This document shows positions 27,331-62,076 of a DNA stretch of 64,000 nucleotides, piece by piece (positions within the stretch are counted from its first letter, which is position 1; every line of letters starts with the position of its first letter). Under the pieces are notes generated by a model that saw only the letters and a program-made list of their open reading frames with translations, did no database searches and was not told where the DNA came from. The position numbers and the translations under genes are program-made. The stretch comes from Candidatus Uhrbacteria bacterium (GTDB lineage Bacteria > Patescibacteriota > Patescibacteriia > UBA9934 > GWF2-40-263). The stretch spans positions 2,697-66,696 of the forward strand of contig JAHFIQ010000004.1 in assembly GCA_023246355.1 (NCBI GenBank). The letters are read 5' to 3'.

Positions 27331-27334
27331 TCGC

Positions 27335-41849: not shown

Positions 41850-41970
41850 GACTGTTGAAATTCCTTCATCTGCTGCGTTGCGGGACCCGGCCATCGCTTC
41901 GCTGTAGGATTACCTACAGCTCCAGCGACTGGCCACCCGCGCCTTGCAGCTGAAGTTTTTCAACAGTCTT
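41850..41970 (-). ncRNA. ~120 nt structured element, copy A (reverse orientation), candidate sRNA or complex terminator
   Basis: 12 bp closing stem GACTGTTGAAA/TTTCAACAGTC; conserved cores identical to the copy at 61956-62076; apical hairpin CTGTAGG-atta-CCTACAG. Confidence 0.45.
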
Positions 41971-42034
41971 AAATGAAAATCCCCACCTGTTGGTGAGGAG
42001 TGGAGATCGACCGCGTGTCGATCTTTTCGTTTGG

Positions 42035-42601
42035 CTACTCGCTCTGGAGCGCCTTTTCGATCTCGGTCCAGTTGTGCGGATCCTGACCTTCGCCGCCCGA
42101 GACCCAGCTTGCGCGCACGCGACCATCCTGGATCAGGATCAGTGCGTTCTTGGTGCGGCTGCTGAGGTTCGGAGGGTTGATCCTCAGAAGTCGCGACAGC
42201 GTGGCGCTGGGGGAGAACACGGTGCAGCGGGTGGGCTCACGTGTCAGGCCATGCAGGCCCGTGAGGATTCCGCAGCTGTAGAGGACACTGCCGATGAAGT
42301 CGGTCGCGCCACCACCGACCATGACGACCGGTACGCCGAGCCGCTCGCCGTGGCGAAGTACTTGTCCGATTGCGCCGTAATCAGCGAGATCTTCCACACA
42401 CACGAGAAGGTAGGTGCCGTCGCCGGGAAGGAGTTCGCCCACATGGAGCGTTCCGCCGTTGACTGGGGTCACACCACCCACGGGCTTTCGATGGATCTGG
42501 AAGGTGGCGTCTTCTGGCCACTCGATGAGGCTGGTGCTGTGGCCCTTGGACGGGCCGGAGGGAGCAAGGGCGGGAGGAGGAAGAGCGGGCGAGAGAGACA
42601 T
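42035..42601 (-). CDS. hypothetical protein, possibly divergent redoxin/peroxiredoxin-like fold
   Basis: ATG after GGAG; loose Bcp-like spacing (LLVCVED ... ILIQDGRV) but no canonical PGCT; GC ~62%. Confidence 0.3.
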   Translation of the reverse strand: MSLSPALPPPALAPSGPSKGHSTSLIEWPEDATFQIHRKPVGGVTPVNGGTLHVGELLPGDGTYLLVCVEDLADYGAIGQVLRHGERLGVPVVMVGGGATDFIGSVLYSCGILTGLHGLTREPTRCTVFSPSATLSRLLRINPPNLSSRTKNALILIQDGRVRASWVSGGEGQDPHNWTEIEKALQSE

Positions 42602-42750
42602 GGGTGCGTTCAACTCCGGGGGATGGTGGATGTGCATCCGCAAACAGGAGTGTTTCGGAAACACGAGCGCGATTCTACCCTGGCACTCTGAGCAAGTCAA
42701 TGCATGCCTGTGGATGGCGGGGATTCGCTCTGTGGTAGAATTTCACCACT

Positions 42751-43926
42751 ATGGTTTCACAAGATCTCGTCATCATCGGTGGAGGCTTTGCTGGAGTGTA
42801 TACCGCCCGTGGGCTGCTCAAGCGCGGCATTCCTGTGACCCTGGTGAGCGATGATAATCACTTCACGTTCACGCCTCTGCTGCACGAGGTTGCCACCGGT
42901 TCGCTGCTTCCCAATGACATTATTTTTGAATACGAACGTTTTTTTCATTCCAAGGCATTTCGGTTTATTCGAGGCCGCGTGGAAGATCTTGATCCTGAGA
43001 AAAAAACGATTCGCCTTACAGGCGGGCATAGCCTTGAGTATTCGTATCTGGTGATCGCCACCGGTTCTGTGACCAATCTCACCCAGGTGGCAGGATCACA
43101 ACATGCCTTTGTGCTCAAAGACGTGCATGATGCCGTGAAATTGAAGTCCGCGATTCTCGCTCGTGCACAAGATTACAATCGTCACGTCGCCATTTCGGTG
43201 GTGGGAGGCGGGCCGACAGGACTCGAACTCGTGTTTGATTTGGATTTGATGTTGCGCGCTTTACGTCGCAAGAATCCAGATTCTCACTACACGCTGCGCG
43301 TCGTTCATGGCTCTGACACGTTTTGTTCCATGAGTGTTCCACCGGTTCAAAAGTATATTCGCCGGGCGCTTGAGAGAGCAGGAATCGAGATTATCTGCAA
43401 CGCGATGGCGCAGGAGATCACACAGGACGAAATCAAGACGACTCAAGGAACATTTCATTCAGATGTGACGATTCTCTGTGCAGGTGTCTTACCCAACACC
43501 TCAATGCTTGGCACGCTCAAAAAAGACGAGAAAGGTCATATTCCCGTGAACGCGTTTTTGCAGACCCTGGAGCATCCTTCGATCTTTGCGTTGGGCGACA
43601 TCATTGCGGTGAATGGCACACCGGTTCCCAAACTTGCACAGACCGCTGTGAGAGAGGCAGATGTGGTTGCAGCCAATATCCAGAGTCTCATCAACAGTGA
43701 GCCACCTCGCGTTTCATACAAAGCGCAAGTCATTGGCATGCTGTTCTCCCTTGGATTTGGCGACGGTGTGGGAGTGATCGGACGGGTTGTGGTCAAAGGT
43801 ATTCCCGCCTGGTATCTTTGGCGCACGGTGTATCTCTTTAAAACTCCTGGCCTGTTTAACAAACTGCGCGTTGCCTTTACGTGGACGCTTGGCTTGTTTC
43901 AGGGCAGAAACTTAACAGAACTCTAA
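42751..43926 (+). CDS. ndh: type II NADH dehydrogenase (NDH-2) / pyridine nucleotide-disulfide oxidoreductase
   Basis: two dinucleotide folds IIGGGFAG and VVGGGPTG. Confidence 0.8.
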   Translation: MVSQDLVIIGGGFAGVYTARGLLKRGIPVTLVSDDNHFTFTPLLHEVATGSLLPNDIIFEYERFFHSKAFRFIRGRVEDLDPEKKTIRLTGGHSLEYSYLVIATGSVTNLTQVAGSQHAFVLKDVHDAVKLKSAILARAQDYNRHVAISVVGGGPTGLELVFDLDLMLRALRRKNPDSHYTLRVVHGSDTFCSMSVPPVQKYIRRALERAGIEIICNAMAQEITQDEIKTTQGTFHSDVTILCAGVLPNTSMLGTLKKDEKGHIPVNAFLQTLEHPSIFALGDIIAVNGTPVPKLAQTAVREADVVAANIQSLINSEPPRVSYKAQVIGMLFSLGFGDGVGVIGRVVVKGIPAWYLWRTVYLFKTPGLFNKLRVAFTWTLGLFQGRNLTEL

Positions 43927-43937
43927 TTCTCACTTCT

Positions 43938-44630
43938 ATGTTCAAGTCCTTGTTTCCCGCACTGCTGTTTCCCCTTCTTCTGATCGGTGCTGGCTGTTCC
44001 AAAACGTCTCTTTCCACGAACGCCGATTCACAACTTACCATCACCCCTGTCTCGATCGAAGAATCGGCTCCGGTTGATGCGACGGTTTTGGTTGATGGGA
44101 CCTACACACTTGATACAGCATCGAGTTCCATTGTTTGGAACGCGGAAAAACGTGTGGGTGCGCATCACACCGGAACCGTTGAGGCAGAACAAGGCGCGGT
44201 GGTGATTGAAAACGGTGAGGTGACCGGCGGTTCGATGGAGGTGAATATGCGCTCCATCGCGGATACGGATTTGACCAGTGAAGAGGATAATAAAAAACTC
44301 GTTGGCCACTTGAAGTCAGAAGACTTTTTCAATGTCGCTGTCTATCCAACCGCCACGTTTGCTCTTACGAGCGTGACCACGGTGGAAGGTGAGGAGACAC
44401 CGCAGGCGACGGGCATCATGACGATCAAAGGGATTGAAAACGAAGTGACGTTTCCAGCGATGTTTGTGATGACCGATGCAGGTGTTCGTCTCACGGGAGT
44501 CGTCACCTTGGATCGAACACTGTGGGACATCCGTTACGGCTCTGAAACGTTTTTTGAAAATCTCGGCGATAATTTGATTGAGGACCAGTTCGCTCTGACA
44601 TTGGATGTGGTGTTTGCGAGTGCGGAGTAA
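43938..44630 (+). CDS. YceI-family periplasmic lipoprotein
   Basis: lipobox LIGAGCS; YceI-like beta-barrel pattern. Confidence 0.7.
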   Translation: MFKSLFPALLFPLLLIGAGCSKTSLSTNADSQLTITPVSIEESAPVDATVLVDGTYTLDTASSSIVWNAEKRVGAHHTGTVEAEQGAVVIENGEVTGGSMEVNMRSIADTDLTSEEDNKKLVGHLKSEDFFNVAVYPTATFALTSVTTVEGEETPQATGIMTIKGIENEVTFPAMFVMTDAGVRLTGVVTLDRTLWDIRYGSETFFENLGDNLIEDQFALTLDVVFASAE

Positions 44631-44645
44631 GTCAAACAAAAATCG

Positions 44646-44675
44646 CCCAGCTCGCAGGGCGGTTTTTTTGTTGTT
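44646..44675. terminator. bidirectional terminator
   Basis: CGCCC-agctcgca-GGGCG followed by TTTTTTT. Confidence 0.7.
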
Positions 44676-44689
44676 CAAGTATGACCTCG

Positions 44690-45637
44690 TCATCGTGTTT
44701 GAGATCCATTTCCGGTAACGAATAAGATCGACAACACCGTAAACAACGTGATGTGAGCGTAGACTTGTTCGCCGAAGAAGAAAAAAGAAAGGGAGAGAAC
44801 AATGAAGGCGATCAGGGAGACCAGACGAGTTTTGATGCCCAGCACGAGCAGGATTCCGATCGCGAGTTCCACCATGCCCACCCATAGCACCCAGGCTTCG
44901 GGAGTGATGGGAATAAAACGTGTCAGTGAAAATTGTTCAACGACCAGGGCGCTGGCATGTGGATTCAGAAATTTTTCATAGATCGCCAGAAAGATCATGG
45001 ACACTCCAATCCCCAGGCGCAGGATCAGCGGCACAAAACGACGTAGGTGTTTGAAAGGAGAGAGAAAGGGAAGTTCAAGCAGATGATCAAGTCCTGGCCG
45101 TGGGTCGGCAAAGATGAGCAGGGAGAGAGCGAGGGCGAGAAATTCGGTGGATCCGAGTGTGTACGAGTTCATGCCAAGCGCAAAGAAAAAAAGCAGGATC
45201 GTTGCAAGAGTCGCTGGTGTCAGAAGAAATCCAACCAGAATCAAGAAGCCGAGAAGAAATTCAATCGTGGCGATGAACGGAAACGTTTCCATTCCAGGAC
45301 TTAGCAAGGCCTGCGAGCTTCCTGCGCCAATGAGCGTGATGCCCAGAGCCAAGCGGATCATCCACGGGAAAAAGGCTTCATACTGATGACGGCAGTCAAC
45401 GATATGCGCGTGTTCGTCCTTCACGAGTCGACTCCGTGAAGCGAGGACGTAGATGACGCTGAACACGATGAGAGAAGCACCAAGTAAGATCCACGCCGAG
45501 TGATCACTCAAAGCTCGCAGAAGAAACAGGTCGTCCCGTCCTGCCCAGGCGTCGAAAGACTCACCTGACACCACGTAACGGACATGCGCCTCTGCGAGCC
45601 TTGGAAGCAAGAGAGGAAGAGCAAAAAGCCATTTCAT
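44690..45637 (-). CDS. polytopic membrane protein (DoxX-like repeats)
   Basis: 315 aa, about 8 TM helices. Confidence 0.45.
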   Translation of the reverse strand: MKWLFALPLLLPRLAEAHVRYVVSGESFDAWAGRDDLFLLRALSDHSAWILLGASLIVFSVIYVLASRSRLVKDEHAHIVDCRHQYEAFFPWMIRLALGITLIGAGSSQALLSPGMETFPFIATIEFLLGFLILVGFLLTPATLATILLFFFALGMNSYTLGSTEFLALALSLLIFADPRPGLDHLLELPFLSPFKHLRRFVPLILRLGIGVSMIFLAIYEKFLNPHASALVVEQFSLTRFIPITPEAWVLWVGMVELAIGILLVLGIKTRLVSLIAFIVLSLSFFFFGEQVYAHITLFTVLSILFVTGNGSQTR

Positions 45638-45669
45638 ATAACGCTATCTTATCACGAATCTTGCAAGGG

Positions 45670-46695
45670 ATGAGAAAAAATCGTAGAGTCATGCGCATGA
45701 AATCGACTCTCGAGAATCATTTGCGTGACATGCTCACACTCGCGATTGTCCATAAACCATCGGCACGAGCATTGATTGTGTTTGACCATGCGTCAGGGTT
45801 AGCACGGCTGCTCACCGATGCCTACCACGCGATTCTCCCTACGGCCACGATGATTGAATTCTCTCCAGAAGCAGCTGGGGAGATTCGTGCAAGCGCCAAC
45901 GCTTTATCGCCTGGGGATCTGGTGATCCTTGTTCAGTCATCGAGTTTTCGTTTGAACGATTTTCGTTTTCGCTTGGAGTTATTTAATCGGAACCTTGCGG
46001 TTATTGAGCATCCCCATCTTGGTCGAATGCCTGAGAGTGAATTTCAAACGTATATCGATTCACTTGCGTATGATGCTGGTTATTATCGAACATTGGGTCC
46101 AAAGCTCAAAGAACGGATCGATAAAGCGAAGAAGATTCTTGTGAATGGTCCAGGGGCACAGCTTGAGTACTCCACGACGTTTGAAACAGCCAAACTGAAC
46201 ATTGGCGACTACACAGGCATGAAAAATATTGGCGGACAGTTTCCCATTGGAGAAGTGTTTACCGAACCTGTGAATCTCGATGGTGTGAACGGAACGGTGA
46301 AGTTGTTTGCCTACGGTGGGATGGGTTTCAAATTGGCGGTGCCAGAGGAGCCTGTTCTGGTCGTGATTGAAAAAGGGTTGATCGTGGATGCTCCAAACGC
46401 GCCGCACTCATTTACCGAGGTCCTTGATCAAATTCGTCAGGACGAACCGCTCTGGGTCCGTGAACTTGGCTTTGGTATGAACCGTGCCCTGACCCGAAGT
46501 CGGTTGCTCACGGACATCGGCAGCTACGAACGCATGTGTGGCATTCACCTTTCGCTTGGACAGAAGCACACGGTCTACGCCAAGCCGGGTTTTTCAAAAC
46601 GCAAAAGCAAATATCATGTGGATGTCTTCGTTGATGTGACGACCGTGCAGATCGAAGGGGAGACGGTGTACCGAGATGGTGCCTACTGCATCTGA
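45670..46695 (+). CDS. aminopeptidase-like protein (possibly M29 family)
   Basis: GGQFPIGEVFTEP and HLSLG ... HVDVFVD resemble thermophilic aminopeptidase motifs; low certainty. Confidence 0.35.
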   Translation: MRKNRRVMRMKSTLENHLRDMLTLAIVHKPSARALIVFDHASGLARLLTDAYHAILPTATMIEFSPEAAGEIRASANALSPGDLVILVQSSSFRLNDFRFRLELFNRNLAVIEHPHLGRMPESEFQTYIDSLAYDAGYYRTLGPKLKERIDKAKKILVNGPGAQLEYSTTFETAKLNIGDYTGMKNIGGQFPIGEVFTEPVNLDGVNGTVKLFAYGGMGFKLAVPEEPVLVVIEKGLIVDAPNAPHSFTEVLDQIRQDEPLWVRELGFGMNRALTRSRLLTDIGSYERMCGIHLSLGQKHTVYAKPGFSKRKSKYHVDVFVDVTTVQIEGETVYRDGAYCI

Positions 46696-46731
46696 AACGA
46701 AAAACGATCACCTTGCGATGATCGTCTCTCG

Positions 46732-46806
46732 TGGCAGGGGCGCAGGGATTCGAACCCTGAATGAGAGTTTTGGAGACTCTAGTGATAGCCATTTCACTAC
46801 ACCCCT
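46732..46806 (-). tRNA. tRNA-Trp (anticodon CCA), CCA encoded
   Basis: reverse complement folds as AGGGGTG...CTCCAAA...CAGGGTTCGAATCCCTG...CGCCCCTGCCA, near-collinear with the bacterial tRNA-Trp. Confidence 0.85.
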
Positions 46807-46896
46807 ATTTGGAAACAGTCCCTGTCTAACTTTGGACGGCTGCATTATAATGGACACGACTAAGTCTTACAAGCTCGTCATGAGCATTCTTTTCTT

Positions 46897-47862
46897 ATGA
46901 AACGCTTTATTCCTCTTCTTTTTCCGCTCATTGTTTTAGGCTTCGGATGCGCTTCTGCTGATTCACCTTCCGCGTCATCGACGAGCGAGGTTGAAGCGGA
47001 TGCGTCCACAACCACTGAAGCCGTAAACGAGGAGACAGCCATTGAGAACGAAGTCGAGCAGCCTGAACTCAATCCTGATCTCCCACCCATCATCGACACA
47101 CATGCTCATATTTATCCTGTGTCCAAAGAAGCCAACGAAGCCTACGTGGATGATCTTGTGGCTGCGGCCATGGAAAACGGGGTGAGCAAAATTTTGCTTG
47201 GTTTGAATGCGCGCCAGGTTCCAGATCGTCCGCCAACGTTTTCTTCCGAGCATGACGAAATGGTTTTGGATGCCTACGAACGCTATCCGGACGTGATCGT
47301 TCCGACGCTCAATGGATTTGATCCTGAAGATGAAGCTGCGCCCGAGTATGTTCGTGAGCAGTTGAAAACAGGGAAGTGGAAAATGGTCGGAGAGCTGGAT
47401 GTACGCAATCCCATCAAGCAGAATTCGATCGCCGCAGATTCCGATGTCCTCATGGACATTTACGACATCGCCGGTGAGTATCATGTTCCTGTGATGCTGC
47501 ACTTTACCTTTGCTTTTGGAACAGACGCCGAGAGTGGCAAGGCAGAGCTTGAACGCGCACTCTCTGGCAATCCGGACACGATCTTTATCTACGCGCATAG
47601 CTGTGCTTCCGAGATTGCGCTTCTCATGAGGTCGCATGACAACCTGTACTGTGAACAAGAATCCGGTTCTCCTGCCCCGGGCATTGATTTTTCGCGAGTC
47701 ATTCTGGGCACAGACATTCAGGTGACGGAGCGCGCACCAGAAAAAGTGGCGGACCATTATGCAGACGTGATCGATGCATTGCGTGACACCATCTCCACCT
47801 GGAGCGATGCAGATCAGCTCGCGGCTCGGATCGAGACGCCCACGGCTTTGTTTGGATTATGA
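46897..47862 (+). CDS. amidohydrolase-superfamily metal-dependent hydrolase (lipoprotein)
   Basis: lipobox LGFGCAS; IIDTHAHIYP HxH metal site. Confidence 0.6.
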   Translation: MKRFIPLLFPLIVLGFGCASADSPSASSTSEVEADASTTTEAVNEETAIENEVEQPELNPDLPPIIDTHAHIYPVSKEANEAYVDDLVAAAMENGVSKILLGLNARQVPDRPPTFSSEHDEMVLDAYERYPDVIVPTLNGFDPEDEAAPEYVREQLKTGKWKMVGELDVRNPIKQNSIAADSDVLMDIYDIAGEYHVPVMLHFTFAFGTDAESGKAELERALSGNPDTIFIYAHSCASEIALLMRSHDNLYCEQESGSPAPGIDFSRVILGTDIQVTERAPEKVADHYADVIDALRDTISTWSDADQLAARIETPTALFGL

Positions 47863-48647
47863 CAACACTGGCATTCGTTCTTCTTTCGACCTTTGGCATT
47901 GCCGTTCTTTCTCTGGTTGGGATTGTCTTTTTATCCGTGAGCGAACATCGCCTCGCGCCTCTTGTGCTTCTGTTGGTCGCGCTCTCGGCCGGCGCCATGT
48001 TGGGTAATGTCGTGTTTCATCTGTTGCCTGAAACCTTTGAAACCGTACAAGCCGGGGAGATCACCTTGTTCTTGGCCATGTTGCTCTTTGTTGGTTCGTT
48101 TGTTCTTGCGTTTTTCTTTGAATTATTTTTTTCTGCGTACCATTGCCACAACGTCGCTCACGCTGGTGAAGGAGAGAGTGTCATTGTCTGCAACCATCGC
48201 ATCAAGCCATTTGCGCAACTCGTTCTCTATAGTGATGCGCTTCACAATTTCATCGATGGGCTGATTATCGCTGCTTCGTTTGCTGTGTCTATTCCCTTGG
48301 GACTCACCACAACCCTGGCGGTTGCCCTCCATGAGATTCCTCAAGAGCTGGGAGATTTTGCGGTGTTGCTCCACGGAGGTTACAAAAAAAAACAAGCGCT
48401 CCTGTATAATTTCATCTCGGCGCTGACCGTCGTTGTCGGTGGAGTGATTGGATACTTTGTCACGTCTTCCGTGAGCGTTGCGGTTCCTGTGCTTTTGCCC
48501 TTTGCGGCTGGTAGCTTTCTTTATATCGCTGCCGCAGACTTGATGCCAGAGTTGAAGCATCAAGAAAAAATGAGCGAGACCGTTCTTCATGCGTCAGTGT
48601 TTTTGGTTGGGTTAGTGCTGATGGCGCTTACGGCCTTTCTTGAGTAG
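47859..48647 (+). CDS. zupT: ZIP-family zinc transporter
   Basis: HNFIDGL and HEIPQELGDFAVL signature helices. Confidence 0.8.
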   Translation: MTTLAFVLLSTFGIAVLSLVGIVFLSVSEHRLAPLVLLLVALSAGAMLGNVVFHLLPETFETVQAGEITLFLAMLLFVGSFVLAFFFELFFSAYHCHNVAHAGEGESVIVCNHRIKPFAQLVLYSDALHNFIDGLIIAASFAVSIPLGLTTTLAVALHEIPQELGDFAVLLHGGYKKKQALLYNFISALTVVVGGVIGYFVTSSVSVAVPVLLPFAAGSFLYIAAADLMPELKHQEKMSETVLHASVFLVGLVLMALTAFLE

Positions 48648-48648
48648 C

Positions 48649-49068
48649 TCAGTTTGCTTTCCTAAAGCAGAGAAACGCGATCGCGCCTCCAATCAGACCT
48701 AGCATCAAGTCCGCCATGGTATCCTGCAAAGAGACTTGGGCCTGGGGCCAGCCCATCCAAACTGTGAAGGTGTGATCAAGAACGTATTCGTGAAATTCCC
48801 ACAGGACAGCGATCAGAGCAACGAAGGAAATGACGAATAAAAAATGGTACCAGCCTGAAACGTGTTTGGTGCGAGCGTGTAAAATTTCACAGTGGTGAAC
48901 GGCAAGACCGAGCATGCCCATAGCAAAGCCTCCGGCAAAATGCATGGGGCCGTCAATTCCTGGAATCAAAAAATAGCCGTCCGTGAACAGAAGGATGCTG
49001 TGGAAGACAAGAACCGTAAGAATCGCATAAGAAGCCTTTGTAAACGTCATAACCGCATTATACATCAC
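48649..49068 (-). CDS. small membrane protein, unknown function
   Basis: 139 aa, 4 TM helices. Confidence 0.4.
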   Translation of the reverse strand: MMYNAVMTFTKASYAILTVLVFHSILLFTDGYFLIPGIDGPMHFAGGFAMGMLGLAVHHCEILHARTKHVSGWYHFLFVISFVALIAVLWEFHEYVLDHTFTVWMGWPQAQVSLQDTMADLMLGLIGGAIAFLCFRKAN

Positions 49069-49070
49069 TT

Positions 49071-52985: not shown

Positions 52986-52998
52986 ACATTCCTCTCAC

Positions 52999-54075: not shown

Positions 54076-54177
54076 ATCTCCTACGGCCTCAGATTACTCT
54101 GGGGTTTTTGATTACAGCGCGGGGGCTTAGCCACCGCGGCACGGAAGCCTAGCCTCGGTTTTCAATCGGGAAAACAA

Positions 54178-54210
54178 AAATCCTCTGGACGAATCCAGAG
54201 GATTTTTGAA
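54178..54210. terminator. bidirectional terminator
   Basis: AAAAATCCTCTGG-acgaa-TCCAGAGGATTTTT. Confidence 0.7.
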
Positions 54211-54213
54211 AGC

Positions 54214-54468
54214 TTATTCAGCTTTTGGACGGGCGAGGGACACGCTGATCGCGCGGCCTTCGACCATCATACCGTCGGCGCCTTCGATGGCGGCTTGAGC
54301 GGAAGCGTCGTCAGCATACTCGACGAAGCCGAATCCGCGGCTGCGGCCACTCTCCCGGTCTGTGACAACGCGAGCAGAGACGACTTCACCAAACTTGGCA
54401 AAGATTTCCATCAGAGCGGCGTCGTCGGTTGCCCAGGGGAGGGAGCCGACAAATAACTTGTTCTTCAT
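54214..54468 (-). CDS. RRM-type RNA-binding protein
   Basis: RNP-2 LFVGSL and RNP-1 RGFGFVEY. Confidence 0.8.
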   Translation of the reverse strand: MKNKLFVGSLPWATDDAALMEIFAKFGEVVSARVVTDRESGRSRGFGFVEYADDASAQAAIEGADGMMVEGRAISVSLARPKAE

Positions 54469-54616
54469 AGCAAGAGAAGTGACAAGGGGAACCGAAGTTC
54501 CATCAAAGAGTTAGGAGCTTCTCTGACCACAAAGGGAACAAGAGGAAGCAAGGAAAGTATCTCACAAAAGTCGATCGATGTCAATGGGCCGGGTCTCGGG
54601 TATACTGGAAGGAACT

Positions 54617-55153
54617 ATGCAGCAGAGATCCTTGCTCTGGGTTTTATTGGTCGCATCGGTCTTATTGGTCGGTTGTGGAAAAACGACTGAACACGTTGAC
54701 GAGTCGGCTGCTTTGACGTTGCCAGTGGAGGTCGCGGGTTCGGTCTACCAGAACACGCGTTTTGCTTACGAATTTACAGTTTCAGATGGAATACTCGTGT
54801 ACGCTCTGAATCTTGAAGACCAAACCGCCAGGCTGGCAGGGCCTGAGGATGAGATTGTGTTTGTGGCAGGTGAGGGGACCAACGTGCTCACAGTTCGAGG
54901 GGTCGAGGGACAAGGATCACCTCATGAGTGGCTCACGAGTCATGTGACGTTTTTTTATCCCAAGGGCGAAGCCGCCCAGCAGATTCAAGATCTGGATGGG
55001 AAACAAGCGATCACTCTCTACGGTGACGGCACCAGTGACTCACCAGCTCGACTACTCGTCGCACAACATGACGACCAGTTGATCATCATTACCTTTGAAC
55101 AAGAGGACGAACGTTTTGATCAGATCCTTTCCTCGTTCACGTTTACCCCTTGA
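54617..55153 (+). CDS. lipoprotein, unknown function
   Basis: signal peptide with lipobox LLVGCG. Confidence 0.4.
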   Translation: MQQRSLLWVLLVASVLLVGCGKTTEHVDESAALTLPVEVAGSVYQNTRFAYEFTVSDGILVYALNLEDQTARLAGPEDEIVFVAGEGTNVLTVRGVEGQGSPHEWLTSHVTFFYPKGEAAQQIQDLDGKQAITLYGDGTSDSPARLLVAQHDDQLIIITFEQEDERFDQILSSFTFTP

Positions 55154-56423
55154 GAGCCTGGCGCATCTGTGTTTTGTAGAGCTCGACTTCTGGTTGGTCA
55201 AACGCGTTGACGTCCATGAGTCGTGCCAGATACATCACCTCGATCATGCGCCACTGAAGGTAATAGCCAAGTTCCCACGTGCCGATTCCTTCCAGGTCGA
55301 TGAGAAGACAAGGTCGATGTAATTGTCCGTAGGTTGCTTTCACGCCTGTGACGATCGCCTTCATGACCTGTTCAAGAGATTTGTTTTGCAGGTCAGACAC
55401 AAGACCAGAGAACAGCGGCTGACGAGGGACTTGATTGACATCTCCGCTCATGGAATAGATGAGGTGCGTTACTTTGTCATCAGGTCCGGCGAAATACAGT
55501 TGAGCCTGCGAATGTAAATCCGTTGATCCGATGGAGACGATCGGCGTGATACCCTTACCGTCTTTTCCCAGACTCTCGGCCATCAACTGTCGGTACCATT
55601 TTCCGAGTGACTCGAGTTTTGGTGAAAAAAGAAAGCTGTTGTGGATCGTACGACCAGCGCGGCGGTGACAATCGGTGATAATGGCGCTTGCCATGGCCGT
55701 GTTGACCTGTAGATCCTCCTGCGTGTTGTCGACAACTGACTGGCGTGCACCTTCCAGCAATCCCTCCACATCGATGCCGGAAAGCAACAAGGGAAGCAGT
55801 CCGACCGCGGTGAAGACAGAGTAGCGTCCACCGACCATGCTCGGGATCGACAGGCGCGCGATTTTTTTCTCCCCAGCTTGGTTCCAGAGTTTGGATCCTT
55901 CGTCGGTAATGGCGACAAACCGAGATCTGGGATCGCCAAAATGTTCACTCAGGTACGCAAAGAGGACCTCGGCATTGGCGATCGTCTCCGTGGTGGTGCC
56001 TGATTTGCTGATCACGATCACCGCAAAGTCGTCTTTCTTGGGAAGACGTTCGAGTGTACGCGTGACAGACGTCATTTTTTCATCGCTGACCGTATCGAGG
56101 AATAGCAGTTTGGGAAGGCGATCCACGAGCAAGTTCATGGATCCGGCCACGGCATCGTACACAGCCTGTGTTCCCAGGTTCGATCCGCCGATGCCGATCA
56201 CGACCACATATTGAAGCGTGTTGGTTTTGATGGCCGCGGCGACGTCGCGGACCTGTTTGAGGATTTGTTCATCAAAAGGAAGATGCAGAGAACTTTCAGG
56301 CTCGAGGTAGTCTGTTTGCGTTGAGATTTTTTTGAAACGCGAGACAGAGTCGCAGAGGGAACCAGCTCGGTCTTTGAGTTCAGCTTCGGAAACCAGAGCC
56401 CCAGCGTCGTGGATGAATTTCAT
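55143..56423 (-). CDS. pgi: glucose-6-phosphate isomerase
   Basis: SIS-domain motifs GIGGSNLG and SKSGTTTET. Confidence 0.8.
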   Translation of the reverse strand: MKFIHDAGALVSEAELKDRAGSLCDSVSRFKKISTQTDYLEPESSLHLPFDEQILKQVRDVAAAIKTNTLQYVVVIGIGGSNLGTQAVYDAVAGSMNLLVDRLPKLLFLDTVSDEKMTSVTRTLERLPKKDDFAVIVISKSGTTTETIANAEVLFAYLSEHFGDPRSRFVAITDEGSKLWNQAGEKKIARLSIPSMVGGRYSVFTAVGLLPLLLSGIDVEGLLEGARQSVVDNTQEDLQVNTAMASAIITDCHRRAGRTIHNSFLFSPKLESLGKWYRQLMAESLGKDGKGITPIVSIGSTDLHSQAQLYFAGPDDKVTHLIYSMSGDVNQVPRQPLFSGLVSDLQNKSLEQVMKAIVTGVKATYGQLHRPCLLIDLEGIGTWELGYYLQWRMIEVMYLARLMDVNAFDQPEVELYKTQMRQALKG

Positions 56424-56548
56424 ACACCACCATCATATCAAAGCCACGTGTGGATAACCATTTTCCTCTCTTGACTCACAAAATGCTACGATAGATCCAT
56501 AATTTATTTTTCTTTGCAGCTTTCGCTTTCGAAAGCTGAGATCATCGT

Positions 56549-56761
56549 ATGATGAATTCATCTAAGTGCGGCATCCACTGTGTCGCCTGGTGGCTCCTTT
56601 GGGTAGGAGGCATCAACTGGGGTCTGGTCGGTCTGCTCGACTGGAACCTCGTCGACACATTGCTCGGCGGCTGGCCATGGCTCGTGAAGCTCGTGTATAT
56701 CCTCGTGGGTATCTCAGCTCTGCTCGTGTTGCTTGAAAAGAAGTGTACGAAGTGTAAGTAG
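56549..56761 (+). CDS. DUF378-family small membrane protein
   Basis: 70 aa, two TM helices with a GLVGLLDWNLV motif. Confidence 0.5.
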   Translation: MMNSSKCGIHCVAWWLLWVGGINWGLVGLLDWNLVDTLLGGWPWLVKLVYILVGISALLVLLEKKCTKCK

Positions 56762-56880
56762 GATTCAAACAAAAAATGAGGATTGCTCCTCGTTTTTTGT
56801 TTGAAGGTCTTGCCAAAGTGTGGTTTTATTGTTAGTCTGAAACTGCCATTTGGCAAAACTCTGCAACCTACGGAGGACAC

Positions 56881-57036
56881 ATGTCCTTTCTTCTCTCCGG
56901 TGAAATTACCAACGAGCTCTTGGACGGCGGCTACATCACGGACGGCGGGACCCCGATCATCTCCGGCGGTGGCGGCGCCCAGCTCGTCGACGGCGGCCGC
57001 GTCAGCCAAGGCAAGACCGATAGCGGAACGCTCTGA
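56881..57036 (+). CDS. small Gly-rich protein (51 aa), unannotated in the ORF track
   Basis: ATG 6 nt after a perfect GGAGG SD; own terminator at 57082-57110; MSFLLSGEITNELLDGGYITDGGTPIISGGGGAQLVDGGRVSQGKTDSGTL. Confidence 0.4.
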   Translation: MSFLLSGEITNELLDGGYITDGGTPIISGGGGAQLVDGGRVSQGKTDSGTL

Positions 57037-57081
57037 TCAACCTCCAAGGCTGATCTCACACCAACGCTCCCCACGCACCCC

Positions 57082-57110
57082 GAGTCCACACTCGGGTTTT
57101 CTATTTGTGC
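57082..57110 (+). terminator. rho-independent terminator
   Basis: CCCGAGT-ccaca-ACTCGGG followed by TTTTCTATTT. Confidence 0.65.
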
Positions 57111-57124
57111 TAAACTAGAATCCT

Positions 57125-57601
57125 ATGATGAAAAAAGGCATGAAGGCTCCGGGGTTTTCACTTCCGGATCAGGAGGGGACCGTTCACTCACTCGCCGATT
57201 ACAAGGGCCAGTGGGTGCTGCTGTATTTTTATCCTAAAGACGATACGCCTGGTTGTACAAAAGAAGCCTGCATGATTCGTGACTCCTGGCCGAAGTTTAA
57301 AAAACTTTCCCTGAACGTTTTTGGTGTGAGTGTGGACTCGGTGAAGAGTCATGGAAAGTTTGTGAAGAAGTATGACCTGCCGTTTATCCTATTGGCTGAC
57401 GAGGACAAGGCGATCGTCAAAAAGTACGGCGTGTGGGGAAAGAAAAAGTTCATGGGTCGGGAGTATCTGGGAACGAATCGGATGTCGTTTCTGATCGACC
57501 CAACAGGCAAGATCGCCAAAGTGTACGAGAATGTGAAGCCAGAGGCCCATGCAGATGAGGTGCTCACAGACCTGAAAATACTCACCAAAAAAGCAGGCTA
57601 A
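57125..57601 (+). CDS. bcp: thiol peroxidase Bcp / peroxiredoxin Q
   Basis: FYPKDDTPGCTKEAC active-site motif. Confidence 0.85.
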   Translation: MMKKGMKAPGFSLPDQEGTVHSLADYKGQWVLLYFYPKDDTPGCTKEACMIRDSWPKFKKLSLNVFGVSVDSVKSHGKFVKKYDLPFILLADEDKAIVKKYGVWGKKKFMGREYLGTNRMSFLIDPTGKIAKVYENVKPEAHADEVLTDLKILTKKAG

Positions 57602-57617
57602 GCCTGCTTTTTCCTTA
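57590..57617. terminator. bidirectional terminator
   Basis: AAAAAGCAGGC-taa-GCCTGCTTTTT. Confidence 0.7.
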
Positions 57618-58637
57618 CTCCTTTCGCATGGCTCGTGCCATCTGTTCAAATTCTGTCCCGAGTTTCTTCTGTCGCGCTGGAAGGATTTGTTTGTAGACGC
57701 GTTCTTGATCGGCTTTGATACGAGCAAGCTTGGTCTTGAGCATCTTGCCTTTTTCGCCAAACCATTTTTGTACGAACCCAAGCTGTGCATACTCTGCATC
57801 TGCATCTTGCTGTTCTTGTCTTAAGATCATCCATTTTTTCTCAAGAAGCATTTGTTGTCTTGCCTCAACGCTTTCCTGTGATGGCTCACCCATTTTGGTG
57901 ATGACCTCGTGGCTGCCCCCAACGGCTCCTGTTTTTTTGAGTGCGATGTCTGATGGCCCCAGCACGTTGTCATGGGATCCGCCTAATCCACCGGTGGCTT
58001 TGAGCCGAGCGTCCAACAGTGTTCGCTGAGACTCACGCAACGTCTTACGCGACCCTGGGTTTTTTTCAAGGTCTTTGAGTACCTGCATGTACGCCTGGTG
58101 GGGAATGAATTCTGTTGCTGAGATTCGATCTGCATCTTGATCATTTACTTCTTCCAGTTTATTTTCAAGTTCTTGAGAGATTTCTTCTCCCCGTGTGAGC
58201 AAATAAGCTACATCAGCGCCGCTGGCAAGTTGCGCTAAAACTTTTTCACGCGCCTCAAACAAAGCAACCGCTTTGAGTTGTTCTTCAACTTGTTTTGCAT
58301 GAAAACGTGTCTCGTTGGCGAGCGTGGCCTGTTTATCTTCAACAAGACCTCGTCGTTGCTGTGCAAGTTCTTCCAACTCCATGAGCAGATGTCTCTTGTA
58401 TTCATCCATGTCTGCCCCTGTTTTGATTCTTGCTTCAACAAGTTCAATCGCCTGTTGTCGAGCGTTTTGCTCGCGTCGAATAACGTGTTCACGTTTGGGA
58501 ACCGTCCAGATGACGCCCTTGGTATCCACCACATCATCAGGTCGATCAAGTGGTACTCGCGCTGGTCTGGTGATGAGATCTTGATCTACATGCTGTTCTC
58601 CGTGTGGGCTCATATTTTGTGTATACAAATTACCCAC
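57615..58637 (-). CDS. coiled-coil protein, unknown function
   Basis: 340 aa of heptad-like, E/K/Q/L-rich sequence. Confidence 0.45.
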   Translation of the reverse strand: MGNLYTQNMSPHGEQHVDQDLITRPARVPLDRPDDVVDTKGVIWTVPKREHVIRREQNARQQAIELVEARIKTGADMDEYKRHLLMELEELAQQRRGLVEDKQATLANETRFHAKQVEEQLKAVALFEAREKVLAQLASGADVAYLLTRGEEISQELENKLEEVNDQDADRISATEFIPHQAYMQVLKDLEKNPGSRKTLRESQRTLLDARLKATGGLGGSHDNVLGPSDIALKKTGAVGGSHEVITKMGEPSQESVEARQQMLLEKKWMILRQEQQDADAEYAQLGFVQKWFGEKGKMLKTKLARIKADQERVYKQILPARQKKLGTEFEQMARAMRKE

Positions 58638-58708
58638 TCAGTATAGTCTGCCCAGGCTCTTGACGCCAAGGGTCAGTGGATAAACCACCATGGTATAATT
58701 CTGTCCGT

Positions 58709-59152
58709 ATGAAGGTGATCCTGCTCTCAAGCGTCAAGCCGCTTGGAAAAGAAGGGGACGTGGTCGAGGTGTCGGACGGGCACGCACGCAACTTTTTGTT
58801 CCCACAAAGTCTGGCGGTACCAGCAACGGACGAGGCCCTGAAGAAAAAGGCCGAGCGAGAAAAAATCGCCTCAGGCAAAGCCAGCAAGGCCCTTTCAGCG
58901 GCTGGAGACTTGGCGCACAAATTGGAAGGACACGAAGTGTTGCTTGAAGAAAAGGTCAGCGACGGAGGGGTGTTCTTTGCTGCGGTCACAGGAAAGATGA
59001 TTGCCTCAGCGCTCAAGAAAGAGGGTTTTCCGGTCGAAACGGATTGGATCCACATCGAGAGTCCGATCAAAGAACCAGGAGACTACACAGCTTCTGTGTC
59101 CCTGCCTCACGGCTTTGAAGCCGAAATAAAAATCATTGTCGAAGAGAAGTAG
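58709..59152 (+). CDS. rplI: 50S ribosomal protein L9
   Basis: MKVILLSSVKPLGKEGDVVEVSDGHARNFLFP N-terminus. Confidence 0.85.
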   Translation: MKVILLSSVKPLGKEGDVVEVSDGHARNFLFPQSLAVPATDEALKKKAEREKIASGKASKALSAAGDLAHKLEGHEVLLEEKVSDGGVFFAAVTGKMIASALKKEGFPVETDWIHIESPIKEPGDYTASVSLPHGFEAEIKIIVEEK

Positions 59153-59185
59153 CAAGTATCAAGTAGCATGTAGCAAGTATGCTCA
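59152..59185. repeat. IVS-like element, left arm (with cargo gene)
   Basis: agtagcaagtatcaagtagcatgtagcaagtat. Confidence 0.7.
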
Positions 59186-59562
59186 TAGGAATGAATGGAA
59201 ATGAAGGTCAGATAAAGAATTTTACAGATCTTGTTACATGGCAGAAAGGACATACTCTCGTCATCACAGTCTACAAACTAACGAAAAATTTTCCAGCAGA
59301 TGAACGATACGGACTGGTAAGCCAAATGAGACGCTGTTCTGTTTCAATCACCTCTAACATTGCTGAGGGTTTTGGAAGAAGAACAGGAAAAGAAAAAATT
59401 CGATTTTATGATATAGCCATTGGTTCTTTGTTCGAGCTTCAAAATCAGGTTCTCCTCTCGCAGGGGCTTGGATATCTTGATGAATCTCAAATTGCTCTTA
59501 TCCAACCACTTGCTTTAGAGGTGAATCGTTTATTGAATGGCTTAATCAAAACAGCCATCTAG
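59179..59562 (+). CDS. four-helix-bundle protein of the 23S rRNA intervening-sequence (S23p) family
   Basis: ERYGLVSQMRRCSVSITSNIAEGFGRR...FYDIAIGSLFEL hallmark of the PF05635/TIGR02436 family; flanked by inverted-repeat arms. Confidence 0.7.
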   Translation: MLIGMNGNEGQIKNFTDLVTWQKGHTLVITVYKLTKNFPADERYGLVSQMRRCSVSITSNIAEGFGRRTGKEKIRFYDIAIGSLFELQNQVLLSQGLGYLDESQIALIQPLALEVNRLLNGLIKTAI

Positions 59563-59565
59563 CTA

Positions 59566-59612
59566 ATATACTTGCTACTTACTACTTGATACTTGCTACT
59601 TTCCTTTATGAA
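59566..59612. repeat. IVS-like element, right arm
   Basis: atacttgctacttactacttgatacttgctacttt; the pyrG start lies at its edge. Confidence 0.7.
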
Positions 59613-61227
59613 ACATCGTTACATTTTTGTCGTAGGAGGCGTGATGTCAGGTGTTGGAAAGGGAGTGACCACGGCGTCTATTGGTAAAATTCTCCAGTCG
59701 CGTGGTTTGCATGTGACCGCCATCAAGATCGATCCGTATGTGAATGTCGATGCAGGCACCATGAACCCGGTTGAACATGGAGAGGTGTTTGTGACGGACG
59801 ACGGGGACGAGACCGATCAGGACATGGGAAATTACGAGCGGTTTTTGGAAGCGGATTTGACGAGCACGAATTACATGACCACAGGCCGTGTCTACCAGAC
59901 GGTGATCGAGAAGGAGCGCAACTTGGAGTACAAGGGAAAGTGTGTAGAAGTCGTGCCGCATATTCCACTGGAAGTGATTCGTCGTATCAAGAACGCAGCA
60001 CAGATGGCGAAGGCCGATGTCACGATGGTCGAGGTTGGAGGGACGGTCGGTGAGTATCAAAACATTTTATTTTTGGAAGCCGCGCGCATGATGCATTTGG
60101 ACGATCCTGAGAACGTCTTGTTTGTGTTGGTGAGTTACTTGCCTGTGCCAAAGCACTTGGGAGAGATGAAAACCAAGCCGACGCAGTATGCGACCAGAAC
60201 CTTGAATAGCGCGGGTATTCATCCAGACTTTATTGTCTGTCGCGGAGAGCAGTTCATGGACAAACCTCGGCGAGAAAAGTTGAGTGTGTTTTGCAATGTG
60301 AAGCCAGAGGCCGTGATCACCGCGCCGGATGTTCCTTCTATTTATGATATTCCGGCCTTGTTTGAGTCACAGGATCTGTCCAGCACGATTTTGAAAAAAT
60401 TTAAGATGAAGCCTCGCTCTACGGACTTGCGTACCTGGAAGGCCATGGCCGATGTTCAACGGACGGCCAAACGTACCGTAAAGATTGGCGTTGTTGGAAA
60501 GTACTTTGCCACAGGCGACTACACCCTTTCTGACTCCTACATCTCGGTGATAGAAGCACTCAAGGCTGCGGCGTGGAGTCACAAGGTCAAAATTCAGCTT
60601 GACTGGATTAACTCAGAAGATTTTGAAACGCATCCAAAATCCATTTCTCGCTTGAAAGAATACGATGGCATTCTGGTGCCTGGTGGATTCGGCACACGCG
60701 GCATCGAAGGGATCATTGCGGCGATCAAGTATTGTCGCGAGAAAAAAGTTCCGTATTTTGGATTGTGCTATGGCATGCAACTGGCCTGTGTGGAGTTTGC
60801 CAGGCATGTGCTTGGAAAGACGACGGCCCATACGGTGGAAGTCGATGAGGCAACGGTTGATCCAATCATTCATGTGAGTCCGATTCAGTTGAAGAACATT
60901 CGTGAGAATCGTTATGGCGGCACCATGCGTTTGGGGGCGTTCGATTGCAAATTGCAGCCTGGGACGCTCACGGCAAAGGCCTACCGAGCAAGTGTGATTT
61001 CTGAACGTCATCGCCATCGTTATGAGTTTAACAATGACTATGCAGAGGCGATTGAGAAAAAAGGTTTAATGATCACCGGTGTGAATCCCGGATCTGGTTT
61101 GGTGGAGATCGTCGAGCTTAAGAACCACCCGTTCTTCGTGGGTGTCCAGTTCCATCCAGAATTCAAATCTCGTCCGCTCAATCCACATCCACTGTTTAAG
61201 GCATTTATTGGCGCTGCGTTGAAATAA
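59608..61227 (+). CDS. pyrG: CTP synthase
   Basis: YIFVVGGVMSGVGKG N-terminus; C-terminal glutamine amidotransferase domain with GLCYGMQ. Confidence 0.9.
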   Translation: MKHRYIFVVGGVMSGVGKGVTTASIGKILQSRGLHVTAIKIDPYVNVDAGTMNPVEHGEVFVTDDGDETDQDMGNYERFLEADLTSTNYMTTGRVYQTVIEKERNLEYKGKCVEVVPHIPLEVIRRIKNAAQMAKADVTMVEVGGTVGEYQNILFLEAARMMHLDDPENVLFVLVSYLPVPKHLGEMKTKPTQYATRTLNSAGIHPDFIVCRGEQFMDKPRREKLSVFCNVKPEAVITAPDVPSIYDIPALFESQDLSSTILKKFKMKPRSTDLRTWKAMADVQRTAKRTVKIGVVGKYFATGDYTLSDSYISVIEALKAAAWSHKVKIQLDWINSEDFETHPKSISRLKEYDGILVPGGFGTRGIEGIIAAIKYCREKKVPYFGLCYGMQLACVEFARHVLGKTTAHTVEVDEATVDPIIHVSPIQLKNIRENRYGGTMRLGAFDCKLQPGTLTAKAYRASVISERHRHRYEFNNDYAEAIEKKGLMITGVNPGSGLVEIVELKNHPFFVGVQFHPEFKSRPLNPHPLFKAFIGAALK

Positions 61228-61233
61228 GTGTAA

Positions 61234-61296
61234 TGGGGTCAGGTCGGGTTATGGGCATTGTGAAAAACAAAATGCCCATAACCCGACCTGACCCCA
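61234..61296. repeat. perfect 24 bp-stem hairpin (REP-like)
   Basis: GGGGTCAGGTCGGGTTATGGGCAT - tgtgaaaaacaaa - ATGCCCATAACCCGACCTGACCCC. Confidence 0.6.
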
Positions 61297-61299
61297 TGA

Positions 61300-61328
61300 C
61301 AAATCACGGTTGACAGCACCGTGATTTT
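61300..61328 (+). promoter_or_regulatory. sigma70-like promoter TTGACA-17-TAGATT, overlapping a terminator hairpin
   Basis: AATCACGGT-tgacagc-ACCGTGATTTT hairpin contains the -35 hexamer. Confidence 0.4.
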
Positions 61329-61367
61329 GTGATAGATTCTTTCGTTCCGAATCTTCAGGAGGAACCC

Positions 61368-61853
61368 ATGTTTCTGTACAACTGTGCATTGGGTGCGCTT
61401 GCTGGTCTTGGTGCTATTTTCGCTGGGCCCTGGGTTTTGCGCAGCGGTTGGCATTGGGCAGCGAAGCTGATCGTTTTTGGAATGCTCGGTGTCATGCTCT
61501 ACCAGAGTTGGGCGCTCATCATGGGCGGACCAGGTTCGGACTTGCGCATCGTGACCGAGCTTCTGGCCTCCTACGGCGGAATCACCGCCGCCTCGAGGAT
61601 CGTGCAGCGTCCGGGAAACCCCTGGGTTCAGTACGGTATTCCTGCTCTGCTCGTTATCTTTCTCACCATCACCTGGTGGGAGCAGATTGAGCGGTTTCAG
61701 GATGGAGGAGCACGTGCTTTTGTCGGTGACCAAGTGACTCCCGACCAGGCGCAGCCCGCTTCGCAACCGCAGGAGGCCACTCCCCGCAAGAACTTCTGCG
61801 ACGAGAACATCTCAGTCTACCAACGAGAGCAGCTGGGATGTCCACCCAAGTAG
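61368..61853 (+). CDS. membrane protein, unknown function
   Basis: ATG 6 nt after AGGAGG; 161 aa; 3-4 TM helices. Confidence 0.5.
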   Translation: MFLYNCALGALAGLGAIFAGPWVLRSGWHWAAKLIVFGMLGVMLYQSWALIMGGPGSDLRIVTELLASYGGITAASRIVQRPGNPWVQYGIPALLVIFLTITWWEQIERFQDGGARAFVGDQVTPDQAQPASQPQEATPRKNFCDENISVYQREQLGCPPK

Positions 61854-61955
61854 CCGATCACGACTCCGACCCCGCGTCGGAGTTTTCTATTGACATTTTT
61901 TTCTCGTTTCGTTATGCTTTTCGCAAATAATACTTAGATTAAACTTCTGTTCATC

Positions 61956-62076
61956 CGGGAGCTCTGAAAAGCTCCAGCTGCAAGGCGCGGGTGGCCAGTC
62001 GCCAGAGCTGTAGCAGCGCTACTGCGAGGCGATGGCCGGGTCCCGCAACGCAGCAGATGGACGTTTCAGAGCTCCC
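61956..62076 (+). ncRNA. ~120 nt structured element, copy B (forward), candidate sRNA, leader or terminator immediately 5' of rpmA
   Basis: 13 bp closing stem GGGAGCTCTGAAA/TTTCAGAGCTCCC; conserved cores CAGCTGCAAGGCGCGGGTGGCCAGTCGC and GCGATGGCCGGGTCCCGCAACGCAGCAGATG; apical hairpin CAGTAGC-gc-TGCTACTG. Confidence 0.45.

Follow-up and report, generated by a model that had tools for sequence, protein, structure and literature searches.

Two near-identical hairpins beside rpmG and rpmA of a Candidatus Uhrbacteria bacterium as possible recent insertions of a dispersed structured repeat

A stretch of 64,000 nucleotides from a Candidatus Uhrbacteria bacterium (assembly GCA_023246355.1, contig JAHFIQ010000004.1, positions 2,697 to 66,696 of the forward strand; hereafter the window, meaning the whole of this stretch) contains two copies, A and B, of a structured non-coding element that adjoin the ribosomal protein genes rpmG and rpmA, respectively. 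Homologues of its MreB, CTP synthase and L33 proteins likewise assign this DNA to Candidatus Uhrbacteria, a lineage of very small bacteria from groundwater within the Patescibacteria. Copy A begins with the stop codon of rpmG and lies directly 3' of this gene, and copy B ends 2 nt 5' of the rpmA ATG. An earlier note on this DNA had described two structured copies of about 120 nt with identical cores; both are found, and alignment of B with the reverse complement of A confirms that a 28-nt core, CAGCTGCAAGGCGCGGGTGGCCAGTCGC, and a 31-nt core, GCGATGGCCGGGTCCCGCAACGCAGCAGATG, are the same in the two. The unit common to A and B measures about 103 nt and runs from TGAAA to TTTCA, and BLAST aligns the copies over 96 nt at 88.5% identity (E = 4e-30). 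With cores that are 100% identical over 28 and 31 nt and with unrelated flanks and outer arms, A and B are, as judged from their sequences, recent duplicates. Each of the 18-mer core patterns occurs twice in the window, against 0.05-0.08 occurrences expected; no third copy was found by BLAST within the 64 kb, and a scan of the window with the full covariance model described below (R3), run with filters off, returned A and B and nothing further.

For each copy, the predicted fold is a single extended hairpin with an energy between -67 and -74 kcal/mol and a z score, relative to dinucleotide-shuffled sequences, between -6.5 and -9.5; both strands of A and of B fold nearly equally well. The closing stems had been reported as 12-13 bp long, completely different between the copies and perfectly complementary. 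The perfect pairing holds, with lengths of 14 bp in A and 13 bp in B, but the difference is confined to the outer 8-9 bp, which are unrelated and copy-specific, the inner 5 bp (TGAAA/TTTCA) being common to both. The flanks of the two copies are inverted repeats (GACTGT/ACAGTC; GGGAGCTC/GAGCTCCC). In a hand-checked alignment of A and B comprising 47 pairs, 9 pairs are changed on both sides (6 in the outer stem and 3 inside) and 2 are broken, with 97.9% of the cells paired. The apical hairpins, which had likewise been said to differ and yet stay paired, do so in part: between A and B one pair is compensated (G-C to C-G), one is lost to a U·U mismatch in B, and the loop is changed.

The two copies belong to a wider family with members in related genomes. 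In Smith-Waterman comparisons with shuffled controls, A matches element K of a relative designated L210 (GCA_016235605.1) with z = 8.3, and K matches the inner part of element H of the same genome with z = 14.6, all in one relative orientation. Elements H, I, J and K, all stem-closed, are packed in a single 1.7-kb intergenic region of that genome (L210:786-2486), where additional stem layers surround a K-like core in H and an older imperfect hairpin encloses I. RNAalifold finds a common hairpin in A, B, K, the core of H and I, and a covariance model, R2, was built from these five sequences. R2 detected two members absent from its training set, P in L210 and Q in another species (Table 1), both of which are confirmed by the later model R3; thus, the covariance search of related genomes that the earlier note had proposed does reveal further covarying copies. 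The motif GUAGGUAAUCCUAC of the apical hairpin of A recurs in K and Q. The models are strand-specific, R3 scoring A at 83.1 bits on the minus strand versus 12.3 bits on the plus strand and B at 75.2 bits on the plus strand versus 8.9 bits on the minus strand.

In the family alignment, which is derived from the model, fitted to the structure and thus biased towards it, 90.6% of the cells are paired versus 70.3% in shuffles, 14 of the 25 modelled pairs are changed on both sides, and the observed values are reached by none of 500 shuffles. When the 3' partners are slid by 1-3 columns as a control, the fraction of paired cells falls to 28-44%. The same alignment holds 12 G·U cells versus 2 A·C cells, an excess that marks one strand as the folded one, and 71% of the interior unpaired positions are purines. 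The consensus can be written as GGAUGAGAUGCG - helix - GGA - helix - GA - helix - CGAG - CGUAGGUAAUCCUACG - UGAGG - helix - GA - helix - GA - helix - GAGCAGAUCGCC; the unit is bounded by (T)GAAA...UUUC(A), and CGUAGGUAAUCCUACG is a frequent form of the apical hairpin. As modelled, the family is a rod of short helices with a ladder of conserved, purine-rich internal loops of the tandem G·A type, so that the claim of a structured family with conserved internal loops and covarying helices is supported by both the covariance model and the pair statistics. Copies A and B keep the family ends, one GGA/GA loop and the apical hairpin and have several of the G·A loops replaced by other pairings; they are a diverged subfamily that was duplicated after its divergence. 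The copies have only (T)GAAA/UUUC(A) as a common terminal repeat, and no two of them have the same stem over the outer 8-19 bp.

The element matches no family in Rfam. Against Rfam 15, the whole window yields only 4 tRNAs at the gathering threshold, the loci of five relatives yield only tRNAs, and permissive scans of A, B and P return only sub-threshold chance matches. Inspection by eye also led to the rejection of several candidate identities, namely signal recognition particle RNA, 6S RNA, C/D-box or K-turn RNA and TIGR arrays (no Rfam match, the wrong loop geometry, no array). A first covariance model, R1, built from A and B only, proved to be a generic detector of long hairpins that scored reverse strands at 40-46 bits, and its matches were not used as evidence of homology; a weak R3 match in L121 (22 bits) was excluded from the family, being a different long hairpin. 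The pattern of the 18-mer GCGCGGGTGGCCAGTCGC has 114 loci in a collection of genome contigs, all of them chance occurrences in G+C-rich genomes and none with the second core. A two-anchor pattern gave no match in viral and metagenome contigs, and two further pattern scans of viral contigs gave no match in one case and 3 chance matches in the other.

Table 1. Positions of the hairpin copies, their parts, the adjacent signals and the related elements (positions in the window unless a contig is named)
Feature	Position	Strand	Remarks
Copy A, whole hairpin with its 14-bp copy-specific closing stem	41847..41971	minus	rpmG 3' untranslated region (UTR), antisense to rpmG
Copy A, family unit	41856-41962	minus	as matched by the covariance model
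Copy A, closing-stem arm TAAGACTGTTGAAA	41847..41860		first 3 nt are the rpmG stop codon TAA
Copy A, opposite closing-stem arm TTTCAACAGTCTTA	41958..41971		97 nt between the two perfect 14-nt arms
Copy A, apical hairpin GCUGUAGG-UAAU-CCUACAGC	41901..41920	minus	
Copy B, whole hairpin with its 13-bp closing stem	61957..62076	plus	rpmA 5' UTR
Copy B, family unit	61965-62068	plus	as matched by the covariance model
Copy B, 5' closing-stem arm GGGAGCTCTGAAA	61957..61969		
Copy B, 3' closing-stem arm TTTCAGAGCTCCC	62064..62076		94 nt between the two perfect 13-nt arms
Copy B, apical hairpin GCUGUAGC-AGC-GCUACUGC	62007..62025	plus	
Terminator-like hairpin followed by TTTTCATTTA	41980..41999	minus	convergent minus-strand gene; terminator scan
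Likely rpmG terminator, GATCGAC-cgcgt-GTCGATC then TTTTCGTTT	42005..42032	plus	read by eye from the sequence
Promoter-like site TTGACA-17-TATGCT	61890..61918	plus	upstream of rpmA
Member K	L210:2172-2297		
Member P	L210:19985-20090		R2 81.6 bits, E = 4.5e-18; absent from the R2 training set
Member Q	L202:2017-2123		identical to L203:2030-2136; R2 73.2 bits; absent from the R2 training set
Element C	17267-17443		arms 24-31 bp; C(+) corresponds to D(-)
Element D	21857-22024		arms 19-27 bp; ends 3 nt before the mreB ATG

Copy A probably lies within the rpmG transcript, because the likely terminator of this gene is located downstream of it; the terminator scan missed this hairpin, as 4 T and not 5 directly follow its stem. 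The terminator-like hairpin of the convergent gene stands upstream of A on the minus strand, so the strand of A that fits the model would be reached only by read-through or from a promoter of its own, and no promoter-like site for this strand was seen in the scan around A. The promoter-like site upstream of rpmA would place copy B inside the rpmA transcript. Hence, the statement that both copies lie 3' of a gene is correct for A and needs to be amended for B, which is situated in the 5' UTR of rpmA past the promoter-like site. The consensus scan for intrinsic terminators flags other hairpins near A and B but neither of the copies, and B is followed by CCCCUAUG. Relative to the adjacent genes, B is in the sense orientation to rpmA, A is antisense to rpmG, and P and Q are antisense to their host gene. 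The GC skew is positive along the whole window, which argues against a replication origin or terminus between A and B, and the two copies are on opposite strands. In a predicted extended fold, the CAT at 61952-61954 can pair with the start codon of rpmA (62079-62081). No recognisable Shine-Dalgarno sequence was seen at rpmA (62079), rpmG (41694), mreB (22028) or pyrG (59608), nor in the relatives L117, L119, L120 and L200; the four start regions inspected suggest that initiation in this lineage may be largely independent of such sequences.

At orthologous sites, the elements have been gained or lost between close relatives. At the rpmG site of L210, whose L33 protein is 98% identical, the TAA is followed directly by a plain terminator, with both the element and the arm sequence absent, and the same arrangement, with no element and no arm sequence, is found in the Logan contig L211. 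In L119 (L27 protein 72% identical), after pyrG come TTGACA-17-TATACT and a leader of 35 nt that ends in ...tatcctATG, and the element is absent, as it also is from the upstream region of rpmA in L120; these two loci were the useful ones in a metagenome search for loci with L27 that gave mostly unrelated taxa (MAHKKAGG being universal). Because the same sites of the nearest relatives are without the element and its arms, its link to rpmG and rpmA is coincidental, and the tie to ribosomal protein genes implied in the earlier note is not supported, the other members being located beside a gene for an RNA-recognition motif (RRM) protein or in the intergenic cluster of L210. Conversely, the RRM gene of the window (54214-54468, minus strand) is followed only by a plain bidirectional terminator, as it is in four contigs of the same species; thus, the window has no element at some places where relatives hold a family member.

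The empty sites also bear on how the elements might have arrived. Insertion into a pre-existing palindrome or terminator was considered for A and B, as well as for the elements C and D discussed below, and rejected, the empty orthologous sites holding no such palindrome. A target-site duplication was likewise rejected, given that the flanks are inverted and the empty sites are without the sequence; only the GAGCTC of B can be read as a palindromic direct repeat. In other samples, contigs with an identical L27 break inside B, and contigs with an identical neighbouring NADH dehydrogenase break inside A. Such assembly breaks were not taken as a sign of many copies, since two copies that share a 31-mer, or the palindrome itself, suffice to cause them in a de Bruijn graph.

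Members P and Q have corresponding positions in two species, where each lies 4-5 nt beyond the stop codon of an 84-aa RRM_1 protein gene and antisense to it. They are the best-conserved members of the family and are orthologous, their flanks aligning on both sides and their arms differing by compensated changes. The 5' outer arm of Q, GGAATAATGTTA, is the reverse complement of TAACGTTATTCC, which comprises the spacer, the stop codon and the last codon of the RRM gene. Because the RRM coding sequence in TAACGTTATTCC is conserved in all three species, it is ancestral, and this arm of Q was apparently written from the opposite flank. This suggests that copy-specific perfect stems may arise after insertion by hairpin-templated copying, that is, by template switching, and that the closing stems would be neither target duplications nor imported terminal repeats, neither of which they resemble. 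A caveat to such local writing is provided by a further element family (N and O of L217), in which the outermost arm bases are shared between copies, so that arms can also be inherited.

Taken together, these observations lead us to favour, by a modest measure, the view that A and B are recent insertions of a non-coding, structure-constrained hairpin repeat of about 105 nt, of the REPIN or ERIC kind, that is dispersed in Candidatus Uhrbacteria. Insertion is supported by the presence/absence variation, the near-identical cores of A and B, the mixed orientation with respect to transcription and replication, and the clustering and nesting in L210; in particular, the location of A and B on opposite strands under a uniform GC skew and their mixed sense are as expected for insertions. 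The element would spread as selfish or near-neutral DNA via a folded single-stranded intermediate that may be recognised by its shape by a putative trans-acting protein, and recognition of shape would explain why the loops are conserved alongside covarying helices. Following insertion, the closing stem would be extended and rewritten by copying of the opposite flank through template switching in the hairpin, and such local rewriting would give each copy its own perfect outer stem. The element would then be co-transcribed with its host gene, to which it would add a hairpin of about -70 kcal/mol with a long perfect basal duplex, a plausible substrate for RNase III or stabiliser of the transcript end. 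In the case of B, the hairpin of -74 kcal/mol with its perfect 13-bp base abuts the start codon of rpmA and may sequester it, so that rpmA could be expressed only if RNase III cut the perfect duplex or if initiation tolerated a structure ahead of the start codon.

Several points weigh against dispersal by insertion. No transposase, integrase or reverse-transcriptase domain was found in the approximately 60 open reading frames (ORFs) of the window that were scanned, and only two copies are present in 64 kb, a count limited to the window. The exact-pattern scans of sequence collections gave no further copies, which leaves a spread beyond the clade unsupported. Neither A nor B has a direct target-site duplication, the flanks being inverted and the shared terminal repeat being only TGAAA/TTTCA. 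Absence of the elements in relatives could in principle reflect precise deletion rather than insertion. The retention of P and Q at one site in two species could reflect a function of the RNA in the host, and the conservation of the loops together with the excess of G·U on one strand could equally do so; these features would fit a ligand of single-stranded DNA used by the host just as well.

These last points form the core of an alternative that is possible although rather unlikely, namely that the members of the family function as structured RNA, be it as small RNAs or as cis-acting modules, with the purine-rich strand folded and bound by a protein via the ladder of G·A loops. The perfect closing stems would then be processing sites that release the RNA from the transcripts of host genes or from one of its own, and A and B would be working paralogues. 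The shuffle test, in which conserved loops and covarying helices are matched by chance in none of the trials, the G·U excess, the purine-rich internal loops and the difference in model scores between strands are all compatible with such an RNA, as are the maintenance of P and Q directly after the gene of an RNA-binding protein of the RRM type and the position of B on the sense strand of a 5' UTR past a promoter-like site. However, the only transcription that is evident runs opposite to A, P and Q; A is located past the point where the convergent gene is terminated, and no promoter-like site for the model strand of A was seen. Furthermore, the species of the window has no copy adjacent to the RRM gene, copies come and go between close relatives, A and B have replaced several of the family G·A loops with other pairings, and copies are nested and clustered in one non-coding region. 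The earlier note had taken covariation with conserved internal loops as the signature of a functional RNA or a protein-binding cruciform. The covariation is real, but compensatory changes are not diagnostic of RNA function because the REPIN DNA repeats show them too (PMC3116915), and in our analysis covariation alone is no proof of such a function.

A bolder proposal, held with comparably low confidence, is a new class of structured nucleic acid in the Candidate Phyla Radiation (CPR), consisting of a one-strand rod of about 105 nt with a resident copy by the RRM gene, satellites in the UTRs of rpmA and rpmG, a dedicated protein partner and outer stems templated on the spot. As part of this same tentative proposal, the candidate partners would be the product of the RRM gene or, alternatively, the Avd-like four-helix-bundle proteins (PF05635), which are themselves located in hairpin tips.

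Another alternative is an element that acts at the level of DNA, where a cruciform or a folded single strand, recognised by shape and on one strand, would serve as a binding or recombination site, as in integron attC sites or the ends of IS200/IS605 elements. G·T and tandem G·A pairs are stable in DNA too, A and B fold almost equally well on either strand, shape is conserved while sequence varies, and the orientation relative to transcription is mixed. Nevertheless, we consider this alternative improbable: no recombinase or integrase is encoded nearby among the ORFs scanned, the attC core sites RYYYAAC/GTTRRRY are absent from A and B, there is no cassette array, and the location of A and B on opposite strands within a single replichore runs against the replication-strand bias typical of single-strand recombination sites. 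Finally, regulation of rpmA and rpmG by the element as a leader or attenuator of ribosomal protein genes, as the distance of 2 nt from B to the rpmA ATG, the potential pairing of the CAT with this start codon and the position of A directly after rpmG might suggest, can be considered highly improbable, because the position is not conserved (the element is missing upstream of rpmA in L119 and L120 and downstream of rpmG in L210 and L211), the orientation is not fixed (B sense, A antisense), the other members are found by the RRM gene or in a non-coding region with several elements, and no leader in Rfam matches.

The A/B family is accompanied by other structured elements, located by a long-range inverted-repeat search for stem-closed hairpins. 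Elements C and D of the window have homologous cores of about 115 nt that are bounded by AAAAAC...GTTTT, lie on opposite strands, show compensated changes and fold with a three-way junction; neither has an Rfam match. In L117 and L118 (MreB 96% identical), the orthologous sites hold neither element, and only 6 nt separate the stop codon of the DUF4012 gene from the mreB ATG and the convergent genes that flank the site of C overlap. The relatives have stem-closed elements of their own elsewhere, namely E and F in L117, G in L201, H-M in L210, and N and O in L217. N (L217:2731-2888) and the inner part of O (L217:6734-7154) form the further family mentioned above, the outermost arm bases common to its copies being GGCACCCT / AGGGTGCC, and this family shares a GUC-GGA-GGCCG...CGGCC-GA submotif with C, D and E. 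Strains that encode an identical MreB protein (L213:1-80 and L214:1-78, compared with 21857-22027 of the window) have entirely different repeats and hairpins, of the heptamer kind, directly upstream of the mreB ATG. By these sequence comparisons, intergenic sites next to start and stop codons are turnover hotspots for structured elements in this clade.

Repeats of other kinds are found in the same window. Hairpins of heptamer-like repeats (AGTAGCA AGTATCA ...) are located at 8018-8097, 10814-10872, 25416-25520 and 31771-31851, several of them ending 6-10 nt before a start codon, and other strains and species carry different heptamer repeats at similar sites. Between rplI and pyrG (59147-59601), a heptamer hairpin is split at its tip by a gene for a 127-aa protein (59179-59562) of the PF05635 family ('23S rRNA intervening sequence protein'/bAvd-like); a relative with a 94% identical pyrG has only 41 nt at this site, with neither the hairpin nor the PF05635 gene. 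Directly after the pyrG stop codon, at 61229-61301, there is a unique hairpin with 34-nt arms (27 bp perfect) and an AAAAC loop, built like a closing stem that is 'empty'. At about 25800-28000, the G+C content reaches 65%, compared with 52% for the window, and this island contains a 508-aa ORF without a Pfam match and is flanked by a 50-nt repeat (25768-25817 and 27836-27885, 90% identical). Near gene boundaries at 7605-7638, 30029-30062 and 33198-33231, there are short sequences of the type CCACCTGATCCACCTCATCTACCTT that are repeated in tandem with a period of 9 nt.

The genomes of CPR bacteria, or Patescibacteria, have a size of about 1 Mb and are usually called streamlined, with few mobile elements. 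Stem-closed elements repeatedly occupy sites beside essential genes, including rpmA, rpmG and mreB in the window, and the interval between frr and the downstream tRNA-synthetase gene is likewise occupied in relatives as in the window; even strains with an identical flanking protein have different elements at a given site. Short-read assemblies break at such elements, which can also pass for regulatory RNAs. Local template switching, if it does write the outer stems, would make the family a natural system for studying how hairpins form and stay perfect, and a protein partner, if one exists, would define a new system of RNA and protein, or of DNA and protein, in a lineage for which experimental genetics is nearly lacking. 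Should the one-strand rods prove to be a class of their own, they would represent an ongoing, visible case of template switching building RNA or DNA stems.

Among the known systems, the closest in kind are the REPINs, which are doublets of REP sequences that form hairpins and are mobilised by RAYT transposases. A RAYT (Y1 transposase) domain was not seen in the ORFs scanned, which cover only the 64 kb of the genome in the window. REPINs measure about 100 nt, lie outside genes as repeated hairpins, frequently show compensatory changes, and presumably act in the form of one folded strand (PMC3116915). The A/B family resembles them in consisting of non-coding, dispersed and clustered hairpins of about 100 nt that are maintained by compensatory changes. 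In contrast to REPINs, where the ends are conserved 16-mers and the middle is variable, here the loops and the apical hairpin are conserved and the ends are the most variable part.

The ERIC/IRU and Correia/NEMIS elements of enterobacteria and Neisseria are imperfect palindromes of about 100-150 bp that are co-transcribed with their neighbours and vary among strains, and whose hairpins are cut by RNases and alter mRNA stability. With the miniature inverted-repeat transposable elements of the Correia/ERIC type, the present family has in common short, non-coding, dispersed copies with presence/absence polymorphism, and it lacks their direct target-site duplication at each copy. ERIC and Correia elements have terminal inverted repeats that are conserved in all copies and, in Correia, a TA target duplication; at their ends, the copies described here share only the short TGAAA/TTTCA, and their flanks are inverted. 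The intervening sequences of 23S rRNA, which sit at helix tips, are similarly stem-loops closed by a long and nearly perfect stem, but they are located in rRNA and excised by RNase III, whereas A and B are located in mRNA UTRs. Integron attC sites are imperfect palindromes of 57-141 bp in which shape rather than sequence is conserved and which work as one folded strand; in contrast to these, A and B have no RYYYAAC/GTTRRRY, integrase, array or strand bias, their junctions are TGAAAAAC...TTTCA, and they occur as single copies by housekeeping genes. Small dispersed repeats with compensatory changes, often nested in heptamer (STRR) repeats and hairpins, were reportedly described in cyanobacteria by Elhai et al. 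in 2008; these repeats are 21-27 nt long, belong to other organisms and have no sequence relationship with the present family, although hairpins of heptamer repeats are found in the window as well. No description of such elements in CPR bacteria was found in the searchable literature. Thus, small dispersed palindromic repeats are already known as a kind, and the A/B family is an uncatalogued one, which appears to be distinguished by its rods with conserved G·A loops, by copy-specific closing stems that seem to be written locally, and by its placement in the UTRs of essential genes in a reduced genome.

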